60,314 nt of DNA from Bilabrum cf. latius (taxonomy: Eukaryota). Below the pieces are notes generated by a model that saw only the letters and a program-made list of their open reading frames with translations, was not told where the DNA came from and searched no databases. The translations under genes were made by a program, and so were the position numbers. Position 1 is the stretch's first letter. The number at the start of each line of letters is the position of its first letter. Shown here piece by piece: positions 34,110 to 60,314 of the stretch. Location of the stretch: positions 868,001 through 928,314 of the forward strand of contig OZ237760.1 of the NCBI GenBank assembly GCA_965178125.1, written 5' to 3'.

Positions 34110-36698
34110 ATGCGCTCTCAGTTCGCGAACTTGGCATCTCGATTCCATCGCTTTGCTCTGTTTTCTCGGCGTCAATTCTCGTCACGCGCTGCTCCTTCAC
34201 AAACGCCGAGAAAGGTACGCACAAGGTTTGCCCCCTCGCCAACAGGCTCGCTACATATTGGCGGTCTTCGAACGGCGCTCTTTAACTTCATGTTGGCAAA
34301 ACAGAGCGGTGGTGAGTTTCTGTTGCGGGTCGAAGATACAGATAGGACACGATTTGTGCCAGGGGCGACGGAAGGAATCTTACTTGAATTGCAACTGTGT
34401 GGAATCAAACCGGACCATGGCCCAAGCAAGAACGATGTGCAGCACAGTATAGAAATGCACGGCGGTTCGTAGCAAGCACGGGCGCATGCAACTGATGAAT
34501 CTGGTGGCCCATTCCTCCAGTCCCTGCGGCTCAGGCTGTACCATGCGATTGCAGCCAGGCTACTGGCATCCGGGGCAGCATACAGGTGCTTTTGCTCATC
34601 AGATAGATTGAATACTCTCCGAGAAGACCAGGCTCGCCGGGGTGTCCCAGTCATGTACGACGGTCGTTGCTCCGCGGTACCTGCTCAGGAGGCCGAGTAG
34701 CGGGCTGCGAGCGGTGAGCCGCACGTGATTCGCCTGAGGGTGCCGCGATTGGGCTCCATGGGTACCGGTCAGGGTAGCAATGACGCATCCCCTGCATCTC
34801 TAGCCGGTCTCAACCAGCCCTTTGCCCCGCGAGTGGGACACTCCGGGCTGAGCGTGGACGTGAGCGAGGGCCAGGCAGCACTCCGGGCCAGCGACACGGT
34901 GCTGGGGACGACCCGCTTCCCGCTGGTGGCAGTGGACGACGGGGTGCTGCTCAAGAGCGACGGATGGCCCACGTACCACCTCGCTTCCGTTGCGGATGAC
35001 GCGTGCATGGGCATCTCGCACGTGATCCGGGGGCAGGAATGGCTGGCCTCCTTGCCCAAGCACGGGCTGCTGTACAGGGCCCTTGGCTGGGACCGCAAGG
35101 GCACAGGGGGCGAGGGGAGCCAGGAGAACAGTAGCAGTGGCCAGTGGTTAGAGGGCGGTCCCGCTGGCCCGGGGGATGGGTTCGACAAGGCGGCTGCAGG
35201 CACCATCGGGCTGGCTCCCATGCCGGGTGCGGCCTCCATGCCCTGGATGTTCCCCCAAGGTGGGGACGAGGATCCCCTGGGGGACTGGCTGGACCTGCAA
35301 CCATGGGCCGGGTGGAATGAAGCCGATGATGCGTTCGACCTGCCGAGCTTCACGCACCTTCCTCTGCTGCTGGGCGAGGACCGGAGCAAGCTGAGCAAGC
35401 GGCACGGTGCTGCCAGCGTGCAGGAGTACAGAGAGAGGGGCGTGCTGCCCGAGGCGCTGCTGAACCACGTGGCGCTGTTGGGCTGGCACCCCGGTGGGGG
35501 GGACACCCGTGAGGTGTTTTCCCTGCCCCAGCTGTGCGCCGAGTTCAGACTGGACGAGGTGAGCAAGTCGGATGCGGTGGTGCTGGAGCACAAACGGAGG
35601 TGGATCGAGGGTAAGCACTTGAGGGCGGCTGTGCTGCACGGAGGTGTGCATTGCCAGCCGCATGAGGCCTCAGATGCAGATGCAGGGGCTGACACGGATG
35701 GCAAGGCCCCTGCGAGAGAGCCCGCCAGTCCCGAGAGGGTGCGCGCCATGGAGGAGGCCCTGGGGGGCCACTGGCCGGGGGGAGTCTCAGGGGTGCAGGG
35801 CGGCAAGCAACGGCTGTTGGGGCGCATCACCAGCGAGCTGGCTCGTGTGGTGCATGATCGCGCTACTTCCGTGGAGAGCGCCGTGCTGCAGGAGGAAAGG
35901 GCGGGCTGGCGCATGGACCGGCCCGAGGCAGTGTGGCTGGAGGGCTTCAAGGGAGAAGAGGCAGCCGAGGCCATGGGGCGGCAGCAGGGTATCGTCATGG
36001 ACGCAGCGCTGGCCAGAGCGTGCGTTCTGCTGCGGGCTGGCGGATACTACGAGCCCACGGTCAGTGTGCGCCCGTCACTCGCAATAGAGCCAGGGGACAG
36101 AGAGGAAGAAGTGTGCACCAATCTCGAGATGAAGCACGAGTGGAGAGGGGGTGTACCCGAGGAGAAGGTGTTGATAGACTAGCAGAAGCTGCTGCAGCTG
36201 CTGGAGATGGTCTTCGAGCGAGCCGAGGTGGCCGCAGACCTCCCGGGGGTGATGCTGCCGGTATTGCTGCCTCCCGACTGGGCGGGCAAGGAGTCACAGG
36301 CCTCCATGCCGACGGCTTGCGGGGACTCGCAGGATGGCAGAAGGATCAGCGCCGAGCTGCTGGACGCACTGGTGGATGAGCTTAGAGCTGCAGCATCGAC
36401 CATGCGAGACGAGTGCGAGGGATCACCTGAGGGGAAGGGCTGGGGCGCGACTGCGATGAAGGCCGCCAGGCGAGCAGCCAAGCGGATGGACAAGGCGAGG
36501 CGGGCCGGTGGGGAGGAGGAGCGGCGGTTCGAGGGATGGCCTGAGCGGGTCAAGCTTCCCATGGTTCTTTTGCCATTGAGGTGGTGCCTCACTGGCAGCG
36601 ATAGCGGGGCGCCCATCGGCAACCTGCTGGATGCCATGGGCCCGGTGGTCACACTGGCGAGGCTGCAAGCCGGAATCAAAGTGCTTCAGTCAGGTTGA
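34110..36698 (+). CDS. EARS2: Glutamate--tRNA ligase, bacterial type, probably mitochondrial (EARS2-like)
   Basis: Transit-like leader [94 protein letters not shown]; anticodon-binding domain [11 protein letters not shown] at 34470, 34698, 36180; stop TGA 36696-36698. Confidence 0.93.
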
Positions 36699-37403
36699 GC
36701 CGCTCCATGGATTGGATCAGAGAGAGTCATATTGAACAGTACTATTCGTATCATGTAATTGCTTCAATCTTCCCCGTCTAGCTTCCTCTTGATTGCCCTC
36801 AGATGCCTGCGATGCGAGCAAGTACAAAGGCATGGCGGCAGATTAAGTCGTACTACCATGCGCAAGCCCGAATAATGAGCTCATTTGTATTCTCACTCAA
36901 CGTAGCGGCACTTCTCGAAGGCATGCCTCTCTGTGTCGCATTCGTACCAAGCAAACTTTGTCTTCCGCCGACACTGATTCAACGGAATCAGCAAGTGAGC
37001 ACAGAAGTCTCGCGCATGAATTGGAATACTATGGTGTCGTAACTGATCAGGGTGTGCGAAATGCTGCCGCTCCTTGTTGAAGGTATACCCTGCGGTTGAA
37101 AGTCGCAGAGAGGCTTGGGACGGCTAGTGAAATCCGAAAATGGCAGCAACAAGGGCCGCAAATCGGCAGGATGCAACGGCTCACTTTTGGCACCACGAAC
37201 ATAACCCAAGTCCTCAGACTTCATGTCTGATTTACTTGCCATGGTAGAGAAGATTGGGGTGCCCGTCCGCCTCTCCAATTAAATATGGTTTTGGGGTATT
37301 TATACCGTGTTGTTATCTCAAGTGCAAGTCCACGCATTCATTCTTCGATCTAGCGCTCAGGTGGTTGCCAAGCTTCATGTTAGTCGGCTGAAGCAATATC
37401 ACA

Positions 37404-40807: not shown

Positions 40808-42034
40808 ATGCTTAGCCTCGCAGCGGCTATATTTTTTGCGTCGAGCTTGCTGGCTCGTGGAAGCAGCCTTCCGTTGAAGCTCGTCCTTCTCGACGAGGCC
40901 GCGAAATCAGCAGGGGCCAAGTGCCTGGATGGCAGCCCTGGCGGCTACTACTGGCGCCAGGCTACTTCGCAAGCAAATGCTACCAAGTACTTGCTAGTGT
41001 TCAACGGTGGAGGTTGGTGCCGGTCCCTTGAAGATTGCGCCGCCAGATCACACACGAAACTGGGATCCTCAACAAAGTGGTCCTCCTCGATCAATGGCGA
41101 AGGCATCACGTCGACGGATCCAGGGCTCAACCCAGGGTTCAATGGGTGGAATGTGGCCTACCTGTACTATTGCGATGGAACCAGCTACTCCTCCAACAAC
41201 GATACGACGTCGTAGTACGGTTCCCAGCAGCTGTTTTTCAGGGGCCGACGCATCCTTGACGGGTTTCTCGAGGACCTCAAGGCGAATCGCGGCCTCGATA
41301 AAGCCACAGAAGTCCTTCTGTCGGGCCATAGCGCCGGCGGGCTGGGTGCCTATCTGCAGGGCGACCACGTGGGTGACTTTGTGAAGGCGAACGCGGCAGC
41401 CGGAGTAAAGTACGGCGTCGCTCCAGACGCGGGCTGGTTCATGCCGCTGCCACAGGCCACAACTGGTAACAATTACTACCACGACTACATAGTGGAGGTG
41501 CTCGGTGTGCTCGGAAACTCGTCTGGCTGGGTGAACGAGGGCTGTGTGGCAGCCCAGGCTGGGCCCGGGGGGGACCCGCACCAGTGCCTGTTCGCGGAGA
41601 ACGTCTTCCAGTACACCAAGTACGACTACATGCCCGTGCAGTCCTCGTACGATTCCTGGCAGTTGCCAAACATCATCGATCTCAAGTGCCTGCCCCCCAA
41701 GTGCAACGCCACGGAGCTGGGCATCGCGCAGGGCTTCCACTAGGCCCTCGTCGCGAGCATGGCCAAGGCGGGCGCGCTGCCTCCTGGGGTGACCAGACCG
41801 CCGGGGGCCTCCAGGCGGGGCAGCTCTGCCTGGGTCATTTCCTGCGTGTCCCACTCGGAGATGTACTACGGGGACTACTTTTAGAACTCGCGCTGGGAGG
41901 CCAACTCCACGTCGGGCAGGCACTCGCTCAGTGACACCGTGGCGGGCTGGTGGCATGGGGCTTCCAACACGGGCGAGCGGTACGGGTGGGACGAGTGTGA
42001 GTGGCCCTGCAACACCGCATGCTAGGACATCTGA
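40808..42034 (+). CDS. Secreted pectin-acetylesterase/Notum-family esterase
   Basis: Signal peptide, AKCLDGSPGGYY, FNGGGWC, WNVAYLYYCDG, LFFRGRRI, VLLSGHSAGGLG (GxSxG), YDSWQ, SCVSH, terminal ECEWPCNTAC. TAG at 41213, 41741, 41882, 42023; stop TGA 42032-42034. Confidence 0.92.
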
Positions 42035-42231
42035 GCGGGAGCTGCATCTGAGCGGGAGCTGCATCTGAGCGGGAGCTGCATCTGAGCGGGAGCTGCATCT
42101 GAGCGGGAGCTGCATCTGAGCTGGAGCTGCATCTGAGCGGGAGCTGCATCTGAGCGGGAGCTGCATCTGAGCGGGAGCTGCATCTGAGCGGGAGCTGCAT
42201 CTGAGCGGGAGCTGCATCTGAGCGGGAGCTG
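42028..42231. repeat. 17-bp minisatellite x12
   Basis: Unit CATCTGAGCGGGAGCTG, one variant copy near 42121; lies between two convergent genes. Confidence 0.95.
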
Positions 42232-42436
42232 CCTTCTCTCTCAGGAGGCGCTTTTCACTTCTTCGAGACTCGTATGCCAGTCACACACAAATTGCGAGAT
42301 AAGACCGAAGAGCCTGCCAGAGGATGGCAACAAGAATTTCTTTGCAAAAAGATTGCCAGAAGATGGCTGGGTGGCAACAAGGATTTCTTTTGTGTCTGGA
42401 ACGACCGCAAGCATGCACGACCAATCGACCTCATCT

Positions 42437-44204: not shown

Positions 44205-44982
44205 GTAAACTACGGATCAGCCTTACCGAGACAGCGCAGCACCGCCAGTTGACATCTGCGCGCTGAATTTTTTCAGCTCATTAATCTTGGCCTCTTGCTC
44301 GCGCTAGCGGTACACGGCACGATCCCTGGAACTCATAAAGGCTCCACTAGCCTAACGTTGAGCATACCTCGACGAGGACATCTGTTGACCAGTGCTTCCT
44401 TCTCGCTGTTTCACAACGGATTTTACGAAATAAATGCTCGTTTCAATAGAAAATCCGGTATAATAAATGGCCTGATTTCAGCCTACAAGCATGGTAGTCT
44501 TGCGTATTTGATGGAATTGATGTAAGTGAATCATATTTTGGCTCGATACGTGGCATTCTTTGTCTTGGTTGTTAATTCCCTTGTCAAGACAACTTTGAAA
44601 AACCCTGCTGCAACTGAAAATAGCGACCCAACGCACTCAAGCTACACGATGTATTAACTTAAACGGTTATCCATACACTTGCAGAATGATTTTATGTCGA
44701 TTATGATACAGAGGTACTCTTTGGGGACCATATGATACAGTGGACGGCCCCTCAATGCGACTTCAGACATGTCACTATTCAATCAAAACTGTTATTTTGT
44801 CATCTTCTATATTTGCCTGCTTTCCAAAATCAAATATTGAGCTGGTTCCATTTGATAGAACATGATAGGTTGATTGCAACAAAAGGCGCGCTGAGCCACC
44901 ATTCCAAAGCGCTGTCCTGTGACAGAGGGCTACCCTAACCTTAACCATAAAGGCCGCGCAACTAAGCTCTGTCCTACCACTA

Positions 44983-45226
44983 CCCGCGCATCCACACCTC
45001 CCATCCACCGCGCTGTCCCACCACTGCCCGCGCATCCACACCCCCCATCCACCGCGCTGTCCCGCCACTGCCCGCGCATCCACACCCCCCATCCACCGCG
45101 CTGTCCCGCCACTGCCCGCGCATCCCACCTCCCATCCACCGCGCTGTCCCGTCACTTCCCACGCATCCACACCTCCCATCCACCGCGCTGTCCCGTCACT
45201 GCCCGCTCATCCACACCTCCCATCCA
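44983..45226. repeat. C-rich 44-bp subtelomeric minisatellite, ~5.5 copies
   Basis: Unit ~CCCGCGCATCCACACCTCCCATCCACCGCGCTGTCCCGCCACTG at 44983, 45027, 45071, 45115, 45158, 45202; directly abuts telomere array 1. Confidence 0.92.
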
Positions 45227-45229
45227 TTT

Positions 45230-45955
45230 TTAGGGTTAGGGTTAGGGTTAGGGTTAGGGTTAGGGTTAGGGTTAGGGTTAGGGTTAGGGTTAGGGTTAGG
45301 GTTAGGGTTAGGGTTAGGGTTAGGGTTAGGGTTAGGGTTAGGGTTAGGGTTAGGGTTAGGGTTAGGGTTAGGGTTAGGGTTAGGGTTAGGGTTAGGGTTA
45401 GGGTTAGGGTTAGGGTTAGGGTTAGGGTTAGGGTTAGGGTTAGGGTTAGGGTTAGGGTTAGGGTTAGGGTTAGGGTTAGGATTAGGGTTAGGGTTAGGGT
45501 TAGGGTTAGGGTTAGGGTTAGGGTTAGGGTTAGGGTTAGGGTTAGGGTTAGGGTTAGGGTTAGGGTTAGGGTTAGGGTTAGGGTTAGGGTTAGGGTTAGG
45601 GTTAGGGTTAGGGTTAGGGTTAGGGTTAGGGTTAGGGTTAGGGTTAGGGTTAGGGTTAGGGTTAGGGTTAGGGTTAGGGTTAGGGTTAGGGTTAGGGTTA
45701 GGGTTAGGGTTAGGGTTAGGGTTAGGGTTAGGGTTAGGGTTAGGGTTAGGGTTAGGGTTAGGGTTAGGGTTAGGGTTAGGGTTAGGGTTAGGGTTAGGGT
45801 TAGGGTTAGGGTTAGGGTTAGGGTTAGGGTTAGGGTTAGGGTTAGGGTTAGGGTTAGGGTTAGGGTTAGGGTTAGGGTTAGGGTTAGGGTTAGGGTTAGG
45901 GTTAGGGTTAGGGTTAGGGTTAGGGTTAGGGTTAGGGTTAGGGTTAGGGTTAGGG
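45230..45955 (+). repeat. Interstitial telomeric array 1, (TTAGGG) x~121
   Basis: Read directly; one TTAGGA variant near 45481. Confidence 0.99.
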
Positions 45956-47100
45956 TATCTAATATAAAGTCAGGGACAGGGTCGGGGAAAAAATATTTTC
46001 ATCTTCATTTTTTTGTCGAAAATGTGCCCTCTGCGATCTCAGCAACTAGAATAGGTATGAAGATGATTCAAACTGTTTTGGGATGGCCTAGGGCCATATC
46101 ATGGGGCAAATGTTCCCCAGGTTCCGTTTTGACCGCGCGGCGACGATACTGGCTGATGAAGATTTACATGCCGAAAATGTGCCCTCTGCGATCTCAGCAA
46201 CTAGAATAGGTATGAAGATGATTCAAACTGTTTTGGGATGGCCTAGGGCCATATCATGGGGCAAATGTTCCCCAGGTTCCGTTTTGACCGTGCGGCGACG
46301 ATACTGGCTGATGAAGATTTACATGCCGAAAATGTGCCCTCTGCGATCTCAGCAACTAGAATAGGTATGAAGATGATTCAAACTGTTTTGGGACGGCCTA
46401 GGGCCATATCATGGGGCAAATGTTCCCCAGGTTCCGTTTTGACCGCGCGGCGACGATACTGGCTGATGAAGATTTACATGCCGAAAATGTGCCCTCTGCG
46501 ATCTCAGCAACTAGAATAGGTATGAAGATGATTCAAACTGTTTTGGGACGGCCTAGGGCCATATCATGGGGCAAATGTTCCCCAGGTTCCGTTTTGACCG
46601 CGCGGCGACGATACTGGCTGATGAAGATTTACATGCCGAAAATGTGCCCTCTGCGATCTCAGCAACTAGAATAGGTATGAAGATGATTCAAACTGTTTTG
46701 GGACGGCCTAGGGCCATATCATGGGGCAAATGTTCCCCAGGTTCCGTTTTGACCGCGCGGCGACGATACTGGCTGATGAAGATTTACATGCCGAAAATGT
46801 GCCCTCTGCGATCTCAGCAACTAGAATAGGTATGAAGATGATTCAAACTGTTTTGGGACGGCCTAGGGCCATATCATGGGGCAAATGTTCCCCAGGTTCC
46901 ATTTTGACCGCGCGGCGACGATACTGGCTGATGAAGATTTACATGCCGAAAATGTGCCCTCTGCGATCTCAGCAACTAGAATAGGTATGAAGATGATTCA
47001 AACTATTTTGGGACGGCCTAGGGCCATATCATGGGGCAAATGTTTGCCAGGGTTTGTTTACATCATGCAGCGGAAGTATGGAGTTTTCAAACTCACCCGG
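45956..47100. mobile_element. Telomere-associated unit A (short truncated copy of unit B)
   Basis: Starts TATCTAATATAAAGTCAGGGACAGGGTCGGGG, then 155-bp satellite, ends at ...AAACTCACCCGG where unit B continues. Mobility is inferred from the architecture only. Confidence 0.6.
46018..47044. repeat. 155-bp satellite family 1, ~6.6 copies
   Basis: Period of 155 bp, seen directly and in the identical spurious ORFs at 46101, 46256, 46411, 46566, 46721, 46876. Confidence 0.97.
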
Positions 47101-47573
47101 TAGGGTAGGGGTTAGGGTTAGGGTTAGGGTTAGGGTTAGGGTTAGGGTTAGGGTTAGGGTTAGGGTTAGGGTTAGGGTTAGGGTTAGGGTTAGGGTTAGG
47201 GTTAGGGTTAGGGTTAGGGTTAGGGTTAGGGTTAGGGTTAGGGTTAGGGCTAGGGTTAGGGTTAGGGTTAGGGTTAGGGTTAGGGTTAGGGTTAGGGTTA
47301 GGGTTAGGGTTAGGGTTAGGGTTAGGGTTAGGGTTAGGGTTAGGGTTAGGGTTAGGGTTAGGGTTAGGGTTAGGGTTAGGGTTAGGGTTAGGGTTAGGGT
47401 TAGGGTTAGGGTTAGGGTTAGGGTTAGGGTTAGGGTTAGGGTTAGGGTTAGGGTTAGGGTTAGGGTTAGGGTTAGGGTTAGGGTTAGGGTTAGGGTTAGG
47501 GTTAGGGTTAGGGTTAGGGTTAGGGTTAGGGTTAGGGTTAGGGTTAGGGTTAGGGTTAGGGTTAGGGTTAGGG
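47101..47573 (+). repeat. Interstitial telomeric array 2
   Basis: Begins with irregular TAGGGTAGGGG, then (TTAGGG)n; one CTAGGG variant at 47250. Confidence 0.99.
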
Positions 47574-47635
47574 TATCTAATATAAAGTCAGGGACAGGGT
47601 CGGGGAAAAAATATTTTCATCTTCATTTTTTTGTC

Positions 47636-49126
47636 GAAAATGTGCCCTCTGCGATCTCAGCAACTAGAATAGGTATGAAGATGATTCAAACTGTTTTGGG
47701 ATGGCCTAGGGCCATATCATGGGGCAAATGTTCCCCAGGTTCCGTTTTGACCGCGCGGCGACGATACTGGCTGATGAAGATTTACATGCCGAAAATGTGC
47801 CCTCTGCGATCTCAGCAACTAGAATAGGTATGAAGATGATTCAAACTGTTTTGGGATGGCCTAGGGCCATATCATGGGGCAAATGTTCCCCAGGTTCCGT
47901 TTTGACCGTGCGGCGACGATACTGGCTGATGAAGATTTACATGCCGAAAATGTGCCCTCTGCGATCTCAGCAACTAGAATAGGTATGAAGATGATTCAAA
48001 CTGTTTTGGGACGGCCTAGGGCCATATCATGGGGCAAATGTTCCCCAGGTTCCGTTTTGACCGCGCGGCGACGATACTGGCTGATGAAGATTTACATGCC
48101 GAAAATGTGCCCTCTGCGATCTCAGCAACTAGAATAGGTATGAAGATGATTCAAACTGTTTTGGGACGGCCTAGGGCCATATCATGGGGCAAATGTTCCC
48201 CAGGTTCCGTTTTGACCGCGCGGCGACGATACTGGCTGATGAAGATTTACATGCCGAAAATGTGCCCTCTGCGATCTCAGCAACTAGAATAGGTATGAAG
48301 ATGATTCAAACTGTTTTGGGATGGCCTAGGGCCATATCATGGGGCAAATGTTCCCCAGGTTCCGTTTTGACCGCGCGGCGACGATACTGGCTGATGAAGA
48401 TTTACATGCCGAAAATGTGCCCTCTGCGATCTCAGCAACTAGAATAGGTATGAAGATGATTCAAACTGTTTTGGGACGGCCTAGGGCCATATCATGGGGC
48501 AAATGTTCCCCAGGTTCCGTTTTGACCGCGCGGCGACGATACTGGCTGATGAAGATTTACATGCCGAAAATGTGCCCTCTGCGATCTCAGCAACTAGAAT
48601 AGGTATGAAGATGATTCAAACTGTTTTGGGACGGCCTAGGGCCATATCATGGGGCAAATGTTCCCCAGGTTCCGTTTTGACCGCGCGGCGACGATACTGG
48701 CTGATGAAGATTTACATGCCGAAAATGTGCCCTCTGCGATCTCAGCAACTAGAATAGGTATGAAGATGATTCAAACTGTTTTGGGATGGCCTAGGGCCAT
48801 ATCATGGGGCAAATGTTCCCCAGGTTCCGTTTTGACCGCGCGGCGACGATACTGGCTGATGAAGATTTACATGCCGAAAATGTGCCCTCTGCGATCTCAG
48901 CAACTAGAATAGGTATGAAGATGATTCAAACTGTTTTGGGACGGCCTAGGGCCATATCATGGGGCAAATGTTCCCCAGGTTCCGTTTTGACCGCGCGGCG
49001 ACGATACTGGCTGATGAAGATTTACATGCCGAAAATGTGCCCTCTGCGATCTCAGCAACTAGAATAGGTATGAAGATGATTCAAACTGTTTTGGGACGGC
49101 CTAGGGCCATATCATGGGGCAAATGT
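47636..49126. repeat. 155-bp satellite family 1, ~9.6 copies
   Basis: Period of 155 bp; the first two copies carry the same variants as in unit A. Confidence 0.97.
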
Positions 49127-49493
49127 TTGCCAGGGTTTGTTTACATCATGCAGCGGAAGTATGGAGTTTTCAAACTCACCCGGTGGGGGTTTGCAAACCT
49201 ACCCAAGGGGGTCTACAAACCTACACTGCTTGGTTCGAGAAGCTAGCGGTTATTGACCGATGTTAGATGCCATGGCTCGTTCTACCTAGCTATTTGTATG
49301 CGTTAAACCCACTTTGCTAGATACATTGCTTTGATATCAGGCTTCCATTGGGTGATGGTCAAGACTAAACAGAATGCCTCCTGGCTCGTACAAATGCGTC
49401 CTAAATTGGATCACTGGCAGGCACTTTGGCAAACTCCTCTCACAAGCTGGCCCAGCTGCCACTGACCGCAATTGCCATCCGATTGGCTGCTTT

Positions 49494-51026
49494 TCACTCG
49501 TCATCGGAGGAGGGTTCCGCACCGACAGCTGCCAGGAGCGCCTCCACAGCGTCCACGTCTGCCGCATTGAGATCTCCTTCCGCCGTCTTCTCGAGGGCCG
49601 TCATCAGGTCTGCGAGCATGCCCAATCCGTGGTCCCTCTCTTGAATTGTTTCCTGCACGTCCTCGACCATGTCGTCGAGAGTCCGGCTGACGCCCAGCGC
49701 GGTGTCATCGCAGGCAGTGAGGATGCGGTCCACCAGGTGCCGCTGCTAGTCGGTGAAGCCGTTGTCCTCCACTCCACCGTCGTTCTCAGAGTCGTCTTGC
49801 TGGTTCTGGGCCTCGTTCTCTTCTTCCTCATCCAGCTCGTCCCCATCCTCCTCGTCCTGCTGCACGAGCCCTATCGGAGCCTCATCCTCGTCCTGCTCTT
49901 CGGCTGCGTCTACGTGGTACCGACCACCGATGTCCTCTTCATCTTCCTCAGAGTCCTGTCGAGGCAGTGATGCTGCTGCTCCACTCCTTGCGCCACTTGC
50001 TCCCCTCTTCTCCTGTTCAACGGCGTGGCGAGCTCCTCCGCCATAGGCCGGTTGGAGAACGGGCGATCGCTTGGGTTGCATCTTAGCCGGAGGCGCGGCT
50101 TCAGCGTGCCTGCCCTATGGCTCTGCTGATCGGGCACCCTTGTTCTTCGCCTTGCCCTTCGACTTGCTCTTCGACTTGCCCGCGGCCTTGGTCCTGGCCT
50201 TAAGTTTGGCCTTTGCCTTTTCCTTTCTCTCGGCCTCCGCCACTCGCTTGGCTCTGAGAAGATCGTGGAGTGCTTGCTCGGTCTATGAGTCGCTGGACTC
50301 TGAGTCGTCCAGATCCATCCCGCCTTGCTCCCTCCGGGCCGTGGTGGCGCTGTGCTCCGCGACATCCTCGTCGTCGTCGTCGTCGTCGTCGTCCATGGCA
50401 CTCCGCTTGCCCTTTCGCGTACGGGGTGCACTACTAGGTGCGGCAGCAGCGGCTCCCGAAGAACCACCTTGATCTCCTGCTGAATCCTCGGCAGAGTCGT
50501 CAGCCGGCAACTCGAATACGTCCTGGAAGACAGCCTGCATGCCTCCGCGACCACGCACAGAGGCCTTCCCAGCTCCGTAGTCGCAGATGAACTTGATCGC
50601 TTCGTTGTAGGTGTTCTTCCTCAGGCCTTTCATGCCTGCCTTGAACCACTGGTTCTTGGTCACCGAGTAGTCGCACTCGCGCAGGCCCATGAGCAGCTGC
50701 TTCATCCTCCGAAAGCCTGGCGAGCTGGAGCCGCTGGTTGATGCAGCCGGGTACAGGCGACGGTTCAGCGACTCGAGCACGCCAGACGGCAGCTTGGACT
50801 CATCCAGCGCCAGGATGGCATCCACACAGGCCTTGATGCCCGCCTTCTTGGTCCCTTCGTAGTGCTCCGTAGACCCGCAGAGCAGCCCACAGTCTTGGTG
50901 GAGGCCCACGAGGGAGATCAGCAGGACCTGCTTGGCCGCGGACGTGGCGACGCCTGAAGCCAGGGCGGCCACGACAGGGCGAGACTTGCTGGTGTGCTTG
51001 ACGCTGTAGCTCTTTGCGGCGGCCAT
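49494..51026 (-). CDS. Orphan element protein, paralog B (~510 aa)
   Basis: ATG 51026 (MAAAKSYSVKHT), TAG at 50283, 50115, 49746, stop TGA 49494-49496; colinear with the paralog at 52841-54421. Confidence 0.78.
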
Positions 51027-51238
51027 GGTACTCTGCGGTGACAGGGGAACACGGGTGAGGTCACGAACAGGCGCTTGGATGCGGCAGGGAACACGGACAT
51101 GAGACCCAGGGATATTCCAGGGCAAGCTCGAGGGGCAAAAAAAAAAAGGACACAACCCCGCCCACTCGGTCTCAGACCCGGGACCCATGATGTTGGGTCG
51201 GTTCTCCAGTCGTGGGGGCCCGGGCCCCAGCCCAGAAT

Positions 51239-51747
51239 TTAGGGTAGGGTTAGGGTTAGGGTTAGGGTTAGGGTTAGGGTTAGGGTTAGGGTTAGGGTTA
51301 GGGTTAGGGTTAGGGTTAGGGTTAGGGTTAGGGTTAGGGTTAGGGTTAGGGTTAGGGTTAGGGTTAGGGTTAGGGTTAGGGTTAGGGTTAGGGTTAGGGT
51401 TAGGGTTAGGGTTAGGGTTAGGGTTAGGGTTAGGGTTAGGGTTAGGGTTAGGGTTAGGGTTAGGGTTAGGGTTAGGGTTAGGGTTAGGGTTAGGGTTAGG
51501 GTTAGGGTTAGGGTTAGGGTTAGGGTTAGGGTTAGGGTTAGGGTTAGGGTTAGGGTTAGGGTTAGGGTTAGGGTTAGGGTTAGGGTTAGGGTTAGGGTTA
51601 GGGTTAGGGTTAGGGTTAGGGTTAGGGTTAGGGTTAGGGTTAGGGTTAGGGTTAGGGTTAGGGTTAGGGTTAGGGTTAGGGTTAGGGTTAGGGTTAGGGT
51701 TAGGGTTAGGGTTAGGGTTAGGGTTAGGGTTAGGGTTAGGGTTAGGG
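51239..51747 (+). repeat. Interstitial telomeric array 3
   Basis: Begins TTAGGGTAGGG, then (TTAGGG)n. Confidence 0.99.
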
Positions 51748-51805
51748 TATCTAATATAAAGTCAGGGACAGGGTCGGGGAAAAAATATTTTCATCTTCAA
51801 TATTT

Positions 51806-52562
51806 GTCGAAAAAATACGACATAGGATCTCGGCAACCACATGAGATATGAAGACCGTTGAAACGGCATTGGGACGGCCTGGGGGCACAGCATGGGGCAA
51901 ATGTTCCCCAGGTTCCGTTTTGGTCGCGCGGCGCCGATATGGCTCGATGAAGATTTACATGCTGCAAAAGTACGACATAGGATCTCGACAACCACAGGAG
52001 ATATGAAGACCGTTGAAACGGCATTGGGACGGCCTGGGGGCACAACATGGGGCAAATGTTCCCCAGGTTCCGTTTTGCTCGCGCGGCGCCGATATGGCTC
52101 GATGAAGATTTACATGCTGCAAAAGTACGACATAGGATCTCGACAACCACAGGAGATATGAAGACCGTTGAAACGGCATTGGGACGGCCTGGGGGCACAA
52201 CATGGGGCAAATGTTCCCCAGGTTCCGTTTTGGTCGCGCGGCGCCGATATGGCTCGATGAAGATTTACATGCTGCAAAAATACGACATAGGATCTCGGCA
52301 ACCACAGGAGATATGAAGACCGTTGAAACGGCATTGGGACGGCCTGGGGGCACAACATGGGGCAAATGTTCCCCAGGTTCCGTTTTGCTCGCGCGGCGCC
52401 GATATGGCTCGATGAAGATTTACATGCTGCAAAAATACAACATAGGATCTCGGCAACCACAGGAGATATGAAGACCGTTGAAACGGCATTGGGACGGCCT
52501 GGGGGCACAACATGGGGCAAATGTTCCCCAGGTTCCGTTTTGGTCGCGCGGCGCCGATATGG
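51806..52562. repeat. 155-bp satellite family 2, ~5 copies
   Basis: Period of 155 bp (51892, 52047, 52202, 52357, 52512); shares ATGGGGCAAATGTTCCCCAGGTTCCGTTTTG and GATGAAGATTTACATGC with family 1. Confidence 0.95.
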
Positions 52563-52840
52563 ACCAATGGTGAAGTTCATATCTTCAGAATTGTGTTGTT
52601 CATGTGTCCATAGTATGGGTATGGTGAAGACGGCAATGTATTTGCTTGATGGACCGCTTTGATATGTGGGTATTGATGGGTTTACAGTCAAGACTAATCA
52701 GAATGCCTCCTGGCTCCTAACACTTCGTCTTAACGGGTCACTGGCCGACACATTGGCAAACTCCTCTCACAAGCTGGCCCAGTAGCCACTGACCTCATTT
52801 GCCATCCTCCTGGCTGGCTCTCACTCCCCCTGACTGCCTC

Positions 52841-54421
52841 TCACTCGTCATCGGAGGAAGGCTCCGCTCCGACAGCTGCTAGGATCGCCTCCACAGCGTC
52901 CACGGCTTCCGCATTGAGATCTCCTTTCACCGTCTGCTCGAGGGCCGTCATCAGGTCTGCGAGCGTGCTCAACCCGTGGTCCCTCTCTGCAATTGTTTCC
53001 TCCACGTCCTCGACCATGTCTTCGATGGTCCGGCCGACGCCCATCGCGGTGTCATCGCAGGCAGCGAGGATGCGGTCCACCAGATTCCGCTGCTAGGGGG
53101 TGAAGCCGGGCTCCTCCATTCCACTGTTGTTGTCAGAGTCGTCCTGCTGGTTCTGGGCCTCGTTCTCTTCTTCCTCGTCCAGCTGCACCTCCTCGTCTTG
53201 CTGCATAAGCCCCATCGGAGCCTCGTCGTCGTCCTGCTCTCCAGCTGCTTGGTACCGACCACCGGTCTCCTCTTCATCTTCCTCAGAGTCCTGTCGATGC
53301 AGTGATGCTGCTGCTCCACTCCTTGCGCCACTTGCTCCCCTCTTCTCCTGTTCAACGGCGCGGCGAGCTCTTCCGGCATTGCCCAGATGGACGACAGGCG
53401 ATCGCTCGGGCTGCCTCTTAGCCCGAGGCGCGGCTCCAGCCGCCTTCTTGCCCTTCGGTTCTGCCGGTTGGGTACCTGTATCCCTCGACTTGCCCTTAGA
53501 CGTGCCCTTGGACTTGCCCGTCGACTTGCCCGCAGCCTTTGCCCAAGCCTTGGCCTTGGCCTTAGCCTTTTTCCTCTCCTTGGCTTCCGCCGCACGCTTG
53601 GCTCTGAGAAGATCGTTGAATGCTTGATCGGTCGAAGAGTCGCTGGACTCGCCAGAGGCACCCTCATGCTCGCTTTCCCCCGCTCCACTGGACTCTGAGT
53701 CGTCTGGTACCGTTCTGCTCTGGTCCCCCCGGGTCGTGTAGGCACTGTACTCCGCGGCATCCTTCTCGTCGTCGTCGTCGTCGTCGTCGTCCATGATACT
53801 GCGCATGCCCTTCCGCGTACGGGACGTGCCACTCGGCGCGGCAGCAGTGGCTCCCGAAGAACTACTTTGATCTCCTGCTGAAGCCCCGGCATGCTTATAA
53901 GCAGGCGTCTCAAGTACGTCTATGAAGAGAGCGTCCATGCCTCCGCGAGCACGCATTGTCGCCATGCCGGTTCCATAGTCACAGACGAGCTTCACTGTGT
54001 CCTTGTAGTACTTCCGGAGACCGTCCATGCCTGCCCTTAGCCACGAGTTCTTGGTGACAGAGTAACCGCTCTCGCGCAGGCCTGTGAGGAGCTCCCGCAT
54101 CTTCTGGAAGCCTGGTGAGCTGGAGCTCCTGGCTGATGGGCCAGGTGCTAGCCTGCTGTCAAGCGCGGTCAGTAAAACGATGGGCAGCTTCGACTCATCC
54201 AGCGCCAGGATGGCATCCACGCAGGCCTTGATGCCCGCCTTCTTGGTCCCTTTGTAGTGCTCGGTAGACCCGCAGAGCAACCCGCAGTCTTGGTGGAGGC
54301 CCACGAGAGAGATCAGTAGGACCTGCTTGGCCGCGGACGTGTCGACGCCTGAAGCCAGGGCGGCCACGACAGGGCGAGACTTGCTGGTGTGCTTGACGCT
54401 GTAGCTCTTTGCGGCGGCCAT
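52841..54421 (-). CDS. Orphan element protein, paralog C (~526 aa)
   Basis: ATG 54421 (MAAAKSYSVKHT), one TAG at 53093 at the same aligned position as paralog B, stop TGA 52841-52843. Globular-looking N-terminus, acidic and Lys-rich linkers, helical C-terminus. Confidence 0.8.
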
Positions 54422-54628
54422 GGTACTCTGCGGTGACAGGGGAACACAGGTGAGGTCACGAACAGACGCTTGAGTGCGGCAGGGAACACGGACACGAGAC
54501 CTAGAGGTACTCCAGGGCAAGCTCGAGGACACAAAAAAAGGGCCACGACCCCGCCCACTCGGTCTCAGACCCGGGACCCATGATGTTGGGTCGGCTCTCC
54601 AGTCGTGGGGGGCCGGACTCCAGCCCAG

Positions 54629-54728
54629 AAAAAAATAAAAAAAAAGATCGCCCCAACGGGAATCGAACCTCGGGGGTAGGCCGGGGTGCGATTACCAACC
54701 GTACGCAATACCACTCCACCACCACAGC
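54629..54728 (-). promoter_or_regulatory. Degenerate tRNA-like RNA polymerase III cassette (A box, B box, oligo-T)
   Basis: Minus strand: TGGTGGAGTGG (54721-54711, A-box-like), GGTTCGATTCCC (54669-54658, B box), then a T-run at 54645-54629. Acceptor and T stems pair poorly, so not called a tRNA. Confidence 0.55.
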
Positions 54729-55302
54729 AACCCACGCGAAACCGAAAAAAAAATACAGATTCGCATCAAAAGTGCACGCAACTTGCACTTGTCACGCCGA
54801 AACCTACCCGTTCACCCAACGAGCAGCGCGAAATCAGAAACAGTCATATTGCGCTCCTTGTATTCAATTGCAGAGGCGCATACTTGGCATATAGCTACTA
54901 TAGCATATTGTGCATACAACCCTAAAGCAAACGTGAGTCAAATCGATGGGGTATGCGTGGGGATTGCCTCGCGCAATGCGCTTGCTGCAACGTGGTTCAG
55001 ACGTTTGGCTCAATTGCGCGACAGCTAGCAATCGTTGGAACTAATCTCGCGCATATTATCAAATAATATAACATACTGCAAACAATTGCGCGGCGATATA
55101 TAGGCTGCGCGCCCAATGCTCACTTTGCGTGGTGTGGATGTGCTGCGACAACATTTGTGGTGGCCCGGATCAGGTTGCGGAACCCGATGCGCGGCACCGC
55201 CGTGACGAGTGCGCCACCAGGGAACAACGCATCGTACCATCATACTAATCACATCCCAAGTATATTATATATCCTTGTGGCATCTCTGTCCGCAGTCTGG
55301 TC

Positions 55303-58300
55303 ATGGCGCAGTCCACGTACGACGCCACCAAGCATGTGAAGGCTCTCGATTACCTCCGGGCCTTCCTGGACCGCCGCGCGAAGGGCTACGCTCAGAACCC
55401 GCATCGCGTGCGCATCGGAGTCCCAGGGCCACTTCAACCAGGAGGTGCCGCCCTGCCTGGCCCGCCGGCCGGCGAGGCGCAGGCCCAGATCCCGGCCCAG
55501 GTGGGGCCAGCGCCAGGCGGCCATGCCGCCGGGGGGGGCGATGCGGCAGGCCTGCCGGCCCCCGTCCCAGCTATCGGCGAGCATGCTCCGGAGCCCCAGC
55601 TCCAGCAGCAAGAGGGCGCCCAACAACCACCACCGGGTGCAGCTCTTGCTGCTGGCCAGCAGGCGATGCCCGCCGCCCCGCCCCAGCACCCCGCTGGTCC
55701 GGGTGCCAACCTGCCGGTCCCAGGAGGCCTGCAGCCCGAGCCGCCAGCTGGCGAGGCCGACGCCTTCCTCCCGATCCCGGAGCCCCAGCAGGAGCCTGCA
55801 GGTGGGCCAGCCGGTGTCGGTCCGGCCCCTCCAGCAGCCGAGCAGCAGCCAGCTGCCCAGGCTGCCCAGCACCAACTCGTCCCTGGGCCCGTGCCTCTCG
55901 CCGAGGTGCCCGTCCTGGCCGGGGTCGGCGCAGGGGAGGACGCGATGGGCAACGACGAGCCCCCAGAAGCGGTCCAGGCCATCTTCCTCGGGCGCCAAGC
56001 CGCCCACGCGGCCACCCTGGCAGCTCGGCAGGCCATGGTCTGGGATGCTCAGGGCCAGCAGCCGCTCTTCGGGGCAGAGGGAGGAGCGCCCGAGCTGCCC
56101 GTCCCTGGAGTCGTGTTCGCTGCCGGTGCAGAGGCAGCCGGCGCCCAAGGCGGTGGCGCAGGCCCAGACGCCGGAGGGGAGGTCGGTGCACCACCCGTGC
56201 AGGCATGGAACCTGGTCGTCGGCGACCCTGGGGGAGCGCAGGGAGAGGAGGCCCTGGCCGTCAACCTCCCGCCCGAGTACCGGTTCGGCATGCACGAGGC
56301 GACAGACGACCTCGCGCAGCACCCCATGCTGGCCTACCACATATGGGAGGTGGACGACGAGGCGGTGCAGGCCCTGCAGGGCCTGCTGACCTGCGTTGGC
56401 AGGCAGGAGCTGCCTCCCGAGGTGTGGAGGGCGCTCGCACCTCCAGTGATGGAGACGGTGACCATGCAAGGCATGCGGCGCTGGTGGGCGTACCAGAGGC
56501 GCGCCGTTGTCGTCGTGGACAGCCTCCTGCATGCCGAGACTGATGCTGCCGGCGTGGAGCAGCGCGCGCAGAGGCGCGGCCGCTTTCTCGTGCAGCTCGT
56601 TGGCTGGACTGACATCACCAAGATGCTGGAGAGCGAAGACCTGAACGAGGAAGGGGCTGCCTTCATTCGGAGCAAGCTGGCTTCGGTGGCGGTCAGCTTC
56701 TGGCCGTCTCCGATGCTGGCGGAGCCCGGGCTGCACAGCCACAAGCTCTCTCCGCTCCGCACGGAGTGGGATCACTACATCGAGTACAACCGCGTGGACG
56801 AGACGGTCTTTGACGCGGTCGGGCTCTCCGAGCAGCCTCCAGCGTTCATGTACGAGGACGAGGACGAGGACGAGATGGAGGAGGGGCCGGCGGCGCAGCC
56901 GGCTGGGGCGGAGGAGCATGCAGAGGGCGACGAAGATGCCGGGTATGAGGCTGGGGAAGGCGAGTGGGGTGGGGAAGGCCAGTGGGACTCGGACGGAGAC
57001 CAAGGTGGCGACGAGGAAGCGGATGGTGGAGATCCTGCCGCGGAGGCTTTCGGAGCTGCGGATGCCGAGCTGGAAGGCGAGCCTGAAGAGGAGCAGGAGG
57101 CCGCCCCGGATGTGCTGCGGAACCCACCAGACGGCATGGCGGCCCCCGTGGCGGTCCGCTCTGAGCTCTCCGATGTCGACGCCATGGAGGTGGTCGGGAT
57201 CCTATCCGGCGCCGGAGCCTCCCAGGAGGTGCAGACCAGCCCGTTCATGCTGGCGCTTGGGGGGCCGGTGTCACGGCTCCTGCTGGACGAGCCGCTGGAC
57301 CAAGCCTACGGCCTCATCGACGTGCTGATTGGAGCCGACTCGGCGACGCAGGATGGGGTCCTCTGCGGGCGCAGGGGTCTGCAGAGGGACGGGGGGCAGA
57401 TCAGGGTGCAGTCGGCCACGCAGCAGCACCAGCGCACCGAGGTGGACACGAGCGGCTCATCCAGGCCCCGGCTCGGCTACAGCATCGTCTTCAACCGGCA
57501 CATCCCCACGTAGGAGCGGGACAATCCCGGCACGCCGAGGAGTCACGGCGCGTACTACTCACCCCGCATCGACGTCGCGTACCTTGGACCGATGGGGATC
57601 CAGAACATGGGTGTGGATTCGGAGCCGCTGCGGCTGCACCGCATCCATCACGCTCTCCCTGCACCAGCAGGGGACCACGTGACCGTCCAATCCCTGACAT
57701 CGGACGTTCGAAGTGCAGCTCGTCGCTTCCACCAGAGCAGCGAGGAGGTTGGGGTGCTAGAGGAAGCTGAAGCGATCCTGGAGGGAAGCACCGGCACAGT
57801 GCGAGGCAATGCCAGGGCCGTGAAATCCGCACGTGCCACGCTCCGCAAGTACCTCACGATGATGCCCAAACAGCGCGGGGTCGGATCTGGCGACGTCTCG
57901 GTCTCTGTCCTCCTGGCGGGGGCGGCTGAGGTGCGAGTCGTGCTACCGGAGGGCGGTGTGGCTCGGGTGTTTGGCGTTGCTCACGCAGGGTCTGAGGAAG
58001 AGCAGGCCTCCTTGCGCACACTCGCGAGGCGCTGGAACATCCGGCGACTGGAGGGAATGCGCCTCGTTGGAACGCCGTTCGACCAGGCCGTGCAGTCGCT
58101 CCTGATTGGCATCGCAGGTGCCATCAACTACGTGAGAGAGAAGGAGGGGTACCGCGGGCCCGAGTTCATGGTGCAGTCGACCCCGAGGACTGCCACGACG
58201 GCGCAGGGACTCTCCGCATCGTACGCGATTGTAGCAACCGACTCGCCCGTCGGTGTCTCTCGCGGAAGCACCCACACCGAGACTTTGAGTCCTGGAGACC

Positions 58301-59697
58301 GTCACATGGGCGTGCGTGGGACTGCTGAGCCTGATGGCGGGCATCGCATCAGGCCCGGGTACTTCCTGTGCGAAGTGCTCCGGGTTCTGAGCGAGGACGC
58401 GGCCCTGCATCCCACCCAGGTCAGCCATCTGCCCCACAGGCTGAGATATCCTGACGGACTGAAGATCCAAGGGGTCCTGGCGTGCTCGATCTACCGAATC
58501 CTGGTCGTCGGGGGCCAGAACCAGGCGGCGGTTGCTGTGATGCGATCCCTGATGCTGCGACAGGCTCCGGCCGCTGGTGAGCCTGAGGAGGACCCTCCGG
58601 ACCACGGCGGGCACCCTGTAGTGTTTGTCGACCCTCTTGCCGCCGGGAGGGACGCCATCCGCATGGCGACGGAGCTCGGGCAACATCGACCAGAGATCCA
58701 GTGCCAGGACCCCGTGTTGCTCTCCATGGACCTGGGCTTCATGGCAGGTGGCGGCGACATGCACGCTGCGTTTCCGAGCGTGCTGGGCCTGCGTCATGCC
58801 ATGGCACTTGCGGGTGATGCCGTGGCCGACATCTCCTCCGTACCGGGCTTCGGACAGGTGGGGAGCTAGTTCGTCTTCCCAATGCAAGTGGATGAAGAGA
58901 ACGTGAACTGCCTGCTCATGAGCCCATCTCTGGGCAGTGTGCAGTTCAGGGCTCGTGCCAGAGGCGATACGCAAGCTGCCATGACTAAGCATGACTTTCA
59001 GCACGTGGCTGAGCTGGTATCGCAGGCCACCCGCGAGCGGGACGACGAGTTTGTTCGTAAGCTCTTGCCCGCGATGCTGAGCGTATCTCACGGGGTGCAG
59101 ATGTACGTCGAGCAGGCGTTCCGCTCCACGAGGCTCAGCGGCGACAGTCACCAACGGCTTGGGTCTCGGCTGTATGGTGAGCTGGAGCGATGCAGGCAGC
59201 AGGTTCCAAAGGTGGGGCGGGCTGCTGCGGCCACCATGGCAAGGGTTGCGCACGACGAGGCCACCGAGATCGCGTGTCGCAGGTTGCAGGCTATAGGTGA
59301 CGCTCGAGCATCGCTTCGCGTCGAATTCAGCATGGCAGGGCCCGGTCTTCTGATGGGACTAGCAATGGCGCTGGGACTTGAGGACGGACACGCCAGTCTC
59401 GTGGATGCCCTGGCGGAAGGAACGTCGACAGTTCGAGCGCCCTTCTTTGACACAGTTGCTGCCATGGTGCAGCGGGAGGTGGCGCATGCCGTCACGCGGG
59501 ACTTGGAGGAGGCGGTCCGAGGGGCCATGGCTACGGCGGCCAGTATCGAGATAAAGGCTATGGCGGCTGAGCAGGTGTCGGACGGTTTAGCTGTTCAGCA
59601 GGCAGTCGCAGGGGAGCTGCGCATGCTTGCGCTGGATGTGTCGCAGATGGTGGCCCCCACCCAGACTGGGCAAGCCATGACCCGGTCCATCATGGGT
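55303..59697 (+). CDS. Long orphan ORF (>1,460 codons), 3'-truncated by telomere array 4
   Basis: Track ORFs 55303-57513, 57592-58869 and 58882 onward are one frame joined through TAG 57511 and 58867; no TAA or TGA before the G-run/TTAGGG junction. No family recognised. Confidence 0.75.
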
Positions 59698-60019
59698 TTA
59701 GGGGGGGGGGGGGGGGGGGTTTGGGTTAGGGTTAGGGTTAGGGTTAGGGTTAGGGTTAGGGTTAGGGTTAGGGTTAGGGTTAGGGTTAGGGTTAGGGTTA
59801 GGGTTAGGGTTAGGGTTAGGGTTAGGGTTAGGGTTAGGGTTAGGGTTAGGGTTAGGGTTAGGGTTAGGGTTAGGGTTAGGGTTAGGGTTAGGGTTAGGGT
59901 TAGGGTTAGGGTTAGGGTTAGGGTTAGGGTTAGGGTTAGGGTTAGGGTTAGGGTTAGGGTTAGGGTTAGGGTTAGGGTTAGGGTTAGGGTTAGGGTTAGG
60001 GTTAGGGTTAGGGTTAGGG
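59698..60019 (+). repeat. Interstitial telomeric array 4
   Basis: TTTA-G19-TTTGGG, then (TTAGGG)n to 60019. Confidence 0.99.
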
Positions 60020-60300
60020 TATCTGGGGGTCATGTTAGGATCGGGGCACGCCCTTTTTTTGACCAAAAAAAAAAACGCCGCACATTATATATATTTAGAT
60101 AGCCCTTGATCAGTAGAGCTGATTTATGGTTGGTTGGCGGCACTCATTTCCAATATTGAGTGAGATATGGGGAGGTTTAGGGTCACCAGTTGAGCGGATG
60201 ATTTTGGCAGGTCGTTTTAGGCATGTTCAAAGACGAATGGCCATTTGATTGTCTATGTTGTTATCAGAAATGGCCAACAATATGGTATGCATAGCTTGTG
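60020..60300. other. Unit D: short unrelated AT-richer segment that also starts with TATCT
   Basis: Starts TATCTGGGGGTC after array 4. The window ends TTTAGGGGGGGTTA, resembling the start of another array. Confidence 0.45.
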
Positions 60301-60314
60301 TTTAGGGGGGGTTA

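Follow-up and report, generated by a model that had tools for sequence, protein, structure and literature searches.

A stack of truncated elements at a chromosome end

The window, that is the whole stretch of DNA analyzed here, takes up the terminal 60,314 bases of contig C26 (OZ237760.1) in the 48.6-Mb, 111-contig assembly of Bilabrum cf. latius and constitutes a chromosome end. Beyond the native end of the chromosome it carries four units, A to D, of gene-bearing elements that are separated by arrays of TTAGGG telomere repeats (Table 1). Units A, B and C all belong to one element family, F1, and each has lost its distal part; unit D opens with the terminus of another family, F2. Units B and C are ~80% identical across their repeats and open reading frame 1 (ORF1).

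The cuts in units A, B and C had been proposed from the letters of the window in what we refer to as the original prediction, and all three were found as claimed. In unit A, the element sequence AAACTCACCCGG stops at 47100 and is followed by TAGGGTAGGGG(TTAGGG)n, whereas the same motif in unit B (49172-49183) continues with TGGGGGTTTGC, so that the T at 47101 can be assigned to either side. The breakpoint of unit A recurs three times at end C36R, but with another scar. Unit B ends with CAGCCCAGAA at 51237 and goes into TTTAGGGTAGGG, while the motif continues with AAAAATAAAA in unit C (54621-54630). Unit C matches longer copies up to 59695 (...ATCATGG) and then passes into GTTTA-G19-TTTGGG, where complete copies run on as AGTCCGTCC inside an ORF of 2,328 aa. 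Unit D had not been noted in that prediction; its scar, TTAGGGGGGGTTA, is likewise irregular and starts at 60302, where the contig ends. In contrast to these left edges of the arrays, the right edges are exact, with TTAGGG directly followed by TATCTAATATAAAG for arrays 1-3 and by TATCTGGGGGTCA for array 4.

Table 1. Features of the stack at the end of contig C26, in window coordinates
Feature	Positions	Strand	Remarks
C-rich 44-bp minisatellite, CCATCCA core	44969..45226	.	native chromosome end; adjoins array 1
TTAGGG array 1	45230..45955	+	original telomere, now interstitial
Unit A	45956..47101	+	F1 terminus TATCTAATATAAAG; 155-bp repeats 46017-47051; distally truncated
Scar AGGGTAGGGG and TTAGGG array 2	47102..47573	+	
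Unit B	47574..51237	+	F1 copy; 155-bp repeats 47635-49134; ORF1; cut upstream of ORF1
ORF1 of unit B	49494..51026	-	510 aa (TAG as sense)
Scar TTTAGGGTAGGG and TTAGGG array 3	51238..51747	+	identical copy at C32L
Unit C	51748..59695	+	F1 copy, different subfamily from B; cut within ORF2
ORF1 of unit C	52841..54421	-	526 aa
GT-AG intron, 363 nt	54933..55295	+	in ORF2 5´ UTR (untranslated region); retained in genomic copies; splice sites read
ORF2, 5´ part	55303..59695	+	~1,465 codons of 2,328-aa orphan protein
Scar GTTTA-G19-TTTGGG and TTAGGG array 4	59696..60019	+	
Unit D	60020..60301	+	F2 terminus TATCTGGGGGTCA; cut after 282 nt
Fourth scar and telomere start	60302..60314	+	at contig end

Four families of elements and their genes

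In this eukaryote TAG is a sense codon and TGA a stop, as is evident genome-wide, including at window 34701-36700 and at locus L122. The single TERT gene, whose catalytic region is intact, contains 8 in-frame TAG codons and ORF2 contains 11 TAG and 0 TAA; neither of the two element ORFs counted has an in-frame TAA. Glutamine, which stands opposite TAG in 6/28 aligned residues, is the likeliest meaning of the codon to judge from these alignments.

From the telomere join outward, F1 consists of a ~52-nt terminus that is near-invariant across subfamilies, 155-bp repeats, ORF1 on the C-rich strand (hereafter C strand), a divergent promoter region, ORF2 on the G-rich strand (G strand), and 839-bp or 22-bp repeats, within which the F1 copies are cut or the contigs break. 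ORF1 (510-526 aa) encodes an orphan helical N-terminal domain with a low-complexity acidic/basic tail and has homologues in F2 and in a third family, F3, that are 24-36% identical. A predicted intron acceptor in its 5´ UTR, C(C/A)GCAG followed by AGTAC(C/T)-ATG, was present in 22/22 copies examined, and predicted acceptors are kept on both strands of the elements. ORF2 is complete at four ends (C25L, C36R, C25R and C23L). Two full copies differ at frequencies of 0.006/0.007/0.026 for the three codon positions, and this concentration of differences in third positions shows purifying selection on ORF2. The 363-nt intron in its 5´ UTR is skipped in one contig of public run X7 (depth 4.9), a run that we guess to derive from RNA.

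The big ORF, encoding an orphan protein of 2,100-2,300 aa, is the sole gene detectably common to F1, F2 and F4 (F1-F2, E 6e-13; F2-F4, E 4e-5), the homology of F4 being reached via F2. The F4 copies at C15L, C8R and C20R are ~10 kb long and complete-looking; they run from the terminus through the big ORF (C strand) and a small orphan ORF (G strand) to C-rich sequence like that at native chromosome ends. Because the big ORF of F4 sits on the C strand, the two-gene cassette is inverted relative to F1 and F2. The first bases of F1-F3 are alike (TATCT/TATCA); a 40-nt terminal motif that seemed by eye to be shared by these families was not significant when compared with shuffled sequences (F1-F2, P 0.2; F1-F3, P 0.5).

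No inverted terminus was found in a search for terminal inverted repeats. The 22-bp repeat, which is quasi-palindromic and proximal in one F1 subfamily, is alone in recurring inverted distally, beyond ORF2 in one C25L copy (L036), a possible sign of protein-binding sites in subterminal position.

One F3 copy carries a Polinton-like insertion in ORF1 and is cut and healed inside the polymerase gene of that insertion. The AT-rich Polinton/virophage-like insertion at L123 (C28:14301-24300) encodes an rve integrase with chromodomain, a primase-helicase and pPolB; ~20 related internal copies exist, with ~1-kb terminal repeats, and the genes of the insertion read through TAG too. We considered whether the elements themselves are Polintons and rejected this, as the pPolB, rve and helicase genes at C28L belong to a secondary nested insertion with many internal copies and the elements have no inverted terminus.

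Exact proximal joins and variable distal cuts at nearly every end

Array junctions were collected from 228 arrays in 50 end stretches totalling 684 kb; duplicate haplotigs (e.g. C85) may be among these stretches. At least one family terminus was present in 49/50 stretches, and 192/204 arrays with a right flank open directly onto such a terminus: that of F1, TATCTA(A/T)TATAAAG, at 160 right edges plus 2 variants, that of F2, TATCTGGGGGTCA, at 15, that of F3, TATCAGGGGGTCA, at 9 and that of F4, TTACAGTACC, at 6. The remaining right edges lead into the middle of an F1 element (6), into bacterial-looking DNA (5) or into a short internal tract (1). All exact terminus motifs (190/190) are preceded by TTAGGG, with 0 inverted. 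A pattern made up of three telomere repeats, a T and then any base other than T had 281 matches genome-wide; among the 100 matches listed, 97 read TA after the repeats, and 98 are no more than ~32 kb away from a contig end.

A total of 172 arrays have both flanks and measure at least 120 bp; the left edge was irregular in 94 of them and the right edge in 8. Given just 25 interior breaks in 67 kb, this asymmetry exceeds chance, and it persists when only distinct arrays that follow an element are counted (37/69 left, 6/69 right). When copies were aligned with longer ones, 85 distinct truncation points could be mapped, and the lengths of the copies (quartiles 620/1129/2065 nt) are skewed to short. 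After 11 junctions in which the mapped break is followed by non-telomeric letters had been dropped, the first repeats at 55 of the 74 clean junctions are variants with T runs or G runs of differing length. The overlap between broken ends and the telomere template, as expected of classical telomerase seeding, averaged 1.43 nt against 1.26 nt for the null (P about 0.07-0.08) and is therefore at most weakly enriched. The interstitial telomere tracts between units have a median length of 361 bp.

These data confirm that stacks of elements occupy nearly every chromosome end, with an exact proximal join and a variable distal cut that is re-capped by telomere. Exact right edges, irregular left edges, variable truncation and healing by telomerase had all been put forward for the window, and each of these proposals was supported across the sampled ends, healing by the T-run/G-run scars and the presence of an intact TERT gene. 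Identical distal ends, which would have spoken against the original prediction, were encountered only where blocks had been copied and in full-length F4 copies, which end in C-rich minisatellite.

Several features adjoin the arrays. In 37/45 cases the flank of the first array ends in a C-rich minisatellite that is specific to the chromosome (period 32-75 bp, CCATCCA core) and may be a telomere-seeding or promoter signal. At C14R (L068), an F1 copy is broken by a telomere tract of 102 bp and picks up again ~110 bp on, a healed end having been rejoined to the same element. A mid-contig block of array and element in left-end orientation (G000:C14:701393-703830, L066) reflects a chromosome fusion or a misjoin.

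Whole blocks are copied between and within ends

Positions 46232-54834 of the window, which include part of unit A, array 2, unit B, array 3 and part of unit C, are found at C32L with 0 mismatches in 8,609 columns. The C32L copy lies behind a different native end, begins mid-repeat and repeats the scars of units A and B letter for letter. With 0 mismatches in 8.6 kb including the scars, at least one of the two ends must have received the stack as one block. More generally, 17/85 junctions are present at two or more ends, while 18/85 are tandemly repeated. Tandem blocks include a 683-bp unit present six times at C1R and a 12.2-kb block present three times at C36R, and one terminal series is common to C19R, C22R, C4R and C85L.

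The original prediction had read the window as three local cycles of addition, truncation and healing, with age falling from left to right and lengths nested (A<B<C). The recurrence of the 8.6-kb stack, scars included, at C32L leaves this local history unsupported, and the nesting is not general: among adjacent unit pairs, 51 are longer distally and 54 shorter, with no length trend along arrays. Addition, truncation and healing do occur, yet because whole blocks are copied and unit lengths show no trend, position in a stack does not date local events.

Searches for known enzymes and relatives

Comparison of the element ORFs with Pfam, PHROGs, NCBIfam and PDB sequences gave no reverse transcriptase (RT), endonuclease, helicase or other family, and comparison with phage genomes gave no match. 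Word-index searches with the element proteins returned nothing or six near-identical fragments from one 12.8-kb contig, and scans of metagenome and viral contigs gave no relative. A profile search with the big ORF among 1.84 billion representatives yielded 14 matches, all of them close relatives within the F1, F2 and F4 families. An AlphaFold model of the big-ORF core was uninformative (mean per-residue confidence, pLDDT, 33.6), and a model of the ORF1 N terminus (pLDDT 50.4, too poor to exclude anything) gave no structural match above background. No HUH, Walker A or RT-type motif is conserved across the families, though a diverged HUH domain could have escaped notice in the pLDDT 33.6 model; two Helitron_like_N matches are both internal in the genome. 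With neither a Walker A motif nor a Pfam helicase in the element ORFs, no helicase was detected.

The RT profile PF00078 (RVT_1) matched the genome 84 times, with 0 matches inside the arrays examined. We take the 23 RT loci inspected (of 84) to be LINE-, CRE- or DIRS-like on the basis of their motif classes. The sole match within 15 kb of an end, at C37, lies inward of the first array; there, L103 (C37:10455-13742) is a subtelomeric CRE-like retrotransposon ORF of 1,095 aa, of the class lacking long terminal repeats, beside an opposed fragment of another CRE-like family. A TERT query aimed at Penelope-type RT returned only TERT clearly, plus two weak hits. No RT of the Penelope-like element (PLE) type was found in the assembled copies or in the complete-looking F4, though the distal ends of F1-F3 are unassembled and PF00078 could miss an RT that is highly diverged. 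As RVT_1 is lacking from the element ORFs, the pairing of RT with a restriction-enzyme-like (REL) endonuclease was not found in them either.

The hammerhead ribozyme core (CUGA-N-GA...GAAA) occurred 0 times on the C strand of 7 terminal or repeat segments. A candidate hammerhead in the 155-bp repeat, CTGATGA...GAAA, was rejected, being on the G strand only and in one F1 subfamily only. No terminal fold was significant in the segments tested and no Rfam family scored above threshold. We found no account of these elements in the literature searched, from which most subscription papers were absent.

Comparison with known telomere-associated elements

Yeast Y-prime units are separated by telomeric tracts; most of them are full length, and they carry a helicase gene. 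HeT-A of Drosophila is, like the elements described here, RT-less, of single polarity, often truncated and stacked at chromosome ends; none of its gag gene, its poly(A) join, its RT partners in the same arrays and its host without telomerase applies here. According to two reports (PMC6431247, PMC8557442), Terminons/Athena, which are endonuclease-deficient PLEs, are attached to telomeres with a single polarity, lie head-to-tail, are mostly truncated and capped, and form giant units with accessory ORFs. The attachment polarity, head-to-tail arrays and capped truncated ends of Terminons were all found here. What differs is that no PLE-type RT was found and the would-be RNA strand has no hammerhead, that two divergent genes flip orientation between families, and that telomerase tracts separate the units.

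MoTeR1/MoTeR2 of Magnaporthe and FoTeR of Fusarium, as portrayed in two reports (10.1101/845669, PMC12857005), form arrays in TTAGGG telomeres with the 5´ end toward the terminus, and show truncation with de novo telomere formation, amplification by displacement loops (D-loops) and break-induced replication (BIR), exchange between ends and secondary insertions. The same sources state that MoTeR1 and FoTeR encode an RT and a REL endonuclease; the elements here encode neither. Truncation, healing and BIR-type amplification of arrays as in MoTeR were observed, but the CRE-like RTs of this genome lie outside the arrays and the interstitial tracts are much longer. Y-prime units, as described in PMC4700185, are gene-bearing subtelomeric tandem units amplified by recombination, occasionally with a borrowed RT. 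Their recombinational spread between ends has a counterpart in the cross-chromosome block identity described above. The present elements differ in that most copies are randomly truncated and healed, the four families are deeply diverged, telomerase is intact and no known protein family is encoded. In architecture the stacks match the arrays of all three systems. Since the hammerhead, the RT with REL endonuclease and the helicase were each looked for and not found, the elements fit none of Terminon, MoTeR/FoTeR and Y-prime.

How the elements may spread

The explanation that we favor, with confidence about evenly balanced against doubt, is that these telomere-resident, gene-bearing mobile elements, which form four related families, spread by telomere-primed copying of DNA templates followed by healing. 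At a chromosome end, the G-rich 3´ overhang would anneal to the CCCTAA strand in an interstitial array lying ahead of an element, on another end, on the sister or on the same end. Extension by BIR-like synthesis would then determine phase and orientation as well as the exact right edge. The variable cuts that we observe could arise if copying halts, or if the end is broken afterwards, at some near-random position within the element. Telomerase would cap the resulting non-telomeric end, slipping on T/G runs in the first repeats before adding TTAGGG. Copying through several units would produce the tandem and cross-chromosome block duplications seen in the assembly, and the element proteins, ORF2 being under selection, probably promote copying or maintain ends.

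A DNA template is favored because no RT was found even in the complete-looking F4, introns on both strands are apparently retained, the gene cassette flips between families, and blocks with interstitial telomere repeats move whole. The fixed terminus and single orientation, the six right edges that join telomere repeats to the middle of F1, and the F3 copy cut and healed inside its Polinton-like insertion further support BIR-like copying. Two studies provide precedents: MoTeR arrays expand by D-loops and BIR and undergo truncation and healing (10.1101/845669), and BIR terminates at interstitial telomere tracts, with capping by telomerase (PMC7736798).

Several points weigh against telomere-primed DNA copying. 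Recombination alone leaves unexplained the intact, selected ORFs in families whose proteins share only 24-36% identity, the near-invariance of the ~52-nt F1 terminus and the similar first bases of F1-F3, the last objection being tempered by the wider F1-F2 and F1-F3 likeness, which is not significant (P 0.2, 0.5). The mid-element joins share 1-2 nt with the telomere, which is too little for ordinary BIR. None of the F1-F3 copies showed a defined distal end, which leaves room for an RT gene past the 839-bp repeats at which contigs break. Finally, the architecture is exactly that of the RT-driven Terminons, which can also retain introns.

A less likely alternative is that the elements are Terminon- or HeT-A-like retroelements. 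The template would then be a C-strand RNA with CCCUAA repeats at its end; once paired with the overhang, it would be reverse-transcribed, telomerase capping the 5´ truncations. The RT might be encoded distally in unassembled full-length F1-F3 or be supplied in trans, with recombination reshuffling the arrays later. An RNA template with RT fits the architecture equally well, in that polarity and head-to-tail, 5´-truncated, capped copies are as in Terminons (PMC6431247) and MoTeR/FoTeR, lengths are skewed short, the terminal 52 nt of F1 are near-invariant and tandem repeats lie beside the attached end. Many RT families exist in the genome, but the 23 loci inspected look LINE-, CRE- or DIRS-like, the TERT query added only the two weak hits to TERT, and RT was missing from the element ORFs, F4 included. 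Mobilization in trans has a parallel in Y-prime RNA, which Ty1 can mobilize according to PMC4700185; however, the lack of a C-strand hammerhead core in any of the 7 segments, of a significant terminal fold and of an Rfam family, and a larger gene that is antisense in F1 and F2 yet sense in F4, argue against such retroelements here.

It is rather improbable that the 2,100-2,300-aa orphan acts as a nickase, strand transferase or polymerase of an unrecognised kind. Such a protein would recognize the terminus and either join it to the telomere end or copy it there, by a new, one-ended transposition chemistry that leaves random distal ends to telomerase. Termini fixed to the base, a big ORF that is common to F1, F2 and F4, under purifying selection and apparently spliced, and the 14 relatives that are all in-family would fit such an enzyme, which would also explain the selection and the terminal conservation. 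Conserved HUH, Walker A or RT-type motifs are nevertheless lacking, the AlphaFold model is uninformative, and base pairing with a template gives the fixed phase more simply.

That chimeric reads and consensus errors in telomere repeats created the arrays, truncations or scars is very improbable, for although bacterial-looking tails show that chimeric joins at telomere repeats reached the assembly and the public-read comparison skipped 59691-59745 (the G19 scar) as repeat, the irregularity is specific to strand and position (94 versus 8 of 172), contigs whose native ends differ carry identical scars, independent public runs belonging to three studies contain the element in multiple copies, and no bacterial tail was seen with a further array after it. 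Such an artefact is thus unlikely for internal junctions and likely for the bacterial tails. These tails, of varied GC content, follow the last array at six ends (C14L, L056; C15L, L054; C8R, L101; C27R, L126; C40L, L124; C20R, L129) and are probably chimeric reads rather than real capture.

Under any of the biological explanations, this is a real genome-wide telomere-stacking system with orphan genes, the architecture itself being known. The range of telomere-stacking mobile elements is widened by it to a new lineage and to genes that have no known relatives; an intact telomerase coexists with the elements here, and the RT by which Terminons, MoTeRs and TART are defined was not found. We regard it as possible, though doubtful, that the elements constitute an undescribed class of RT-less telomere parasites, in which an orphan protein family drives copying or joining onto the telomere 3´ end and host telomerase finishes each insertion, rebuilding almost all ends. 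If the orphan 2,300-aa protein does drive the process, it would be a new mobilization enzyme; if not, the stacks would be a natural genome-wide case of recombination-driven telomere cassettes under selection. The 85 mapped de novo telomere junctions also form a data set on telomerase starting on non-telomeric DNA, with little template pairing and with T-run/G-run slippage in the first repeats.

Inward of the stack, a 17-bp tandem repeat in 12 copies lies between two genes (window 42028-42232).

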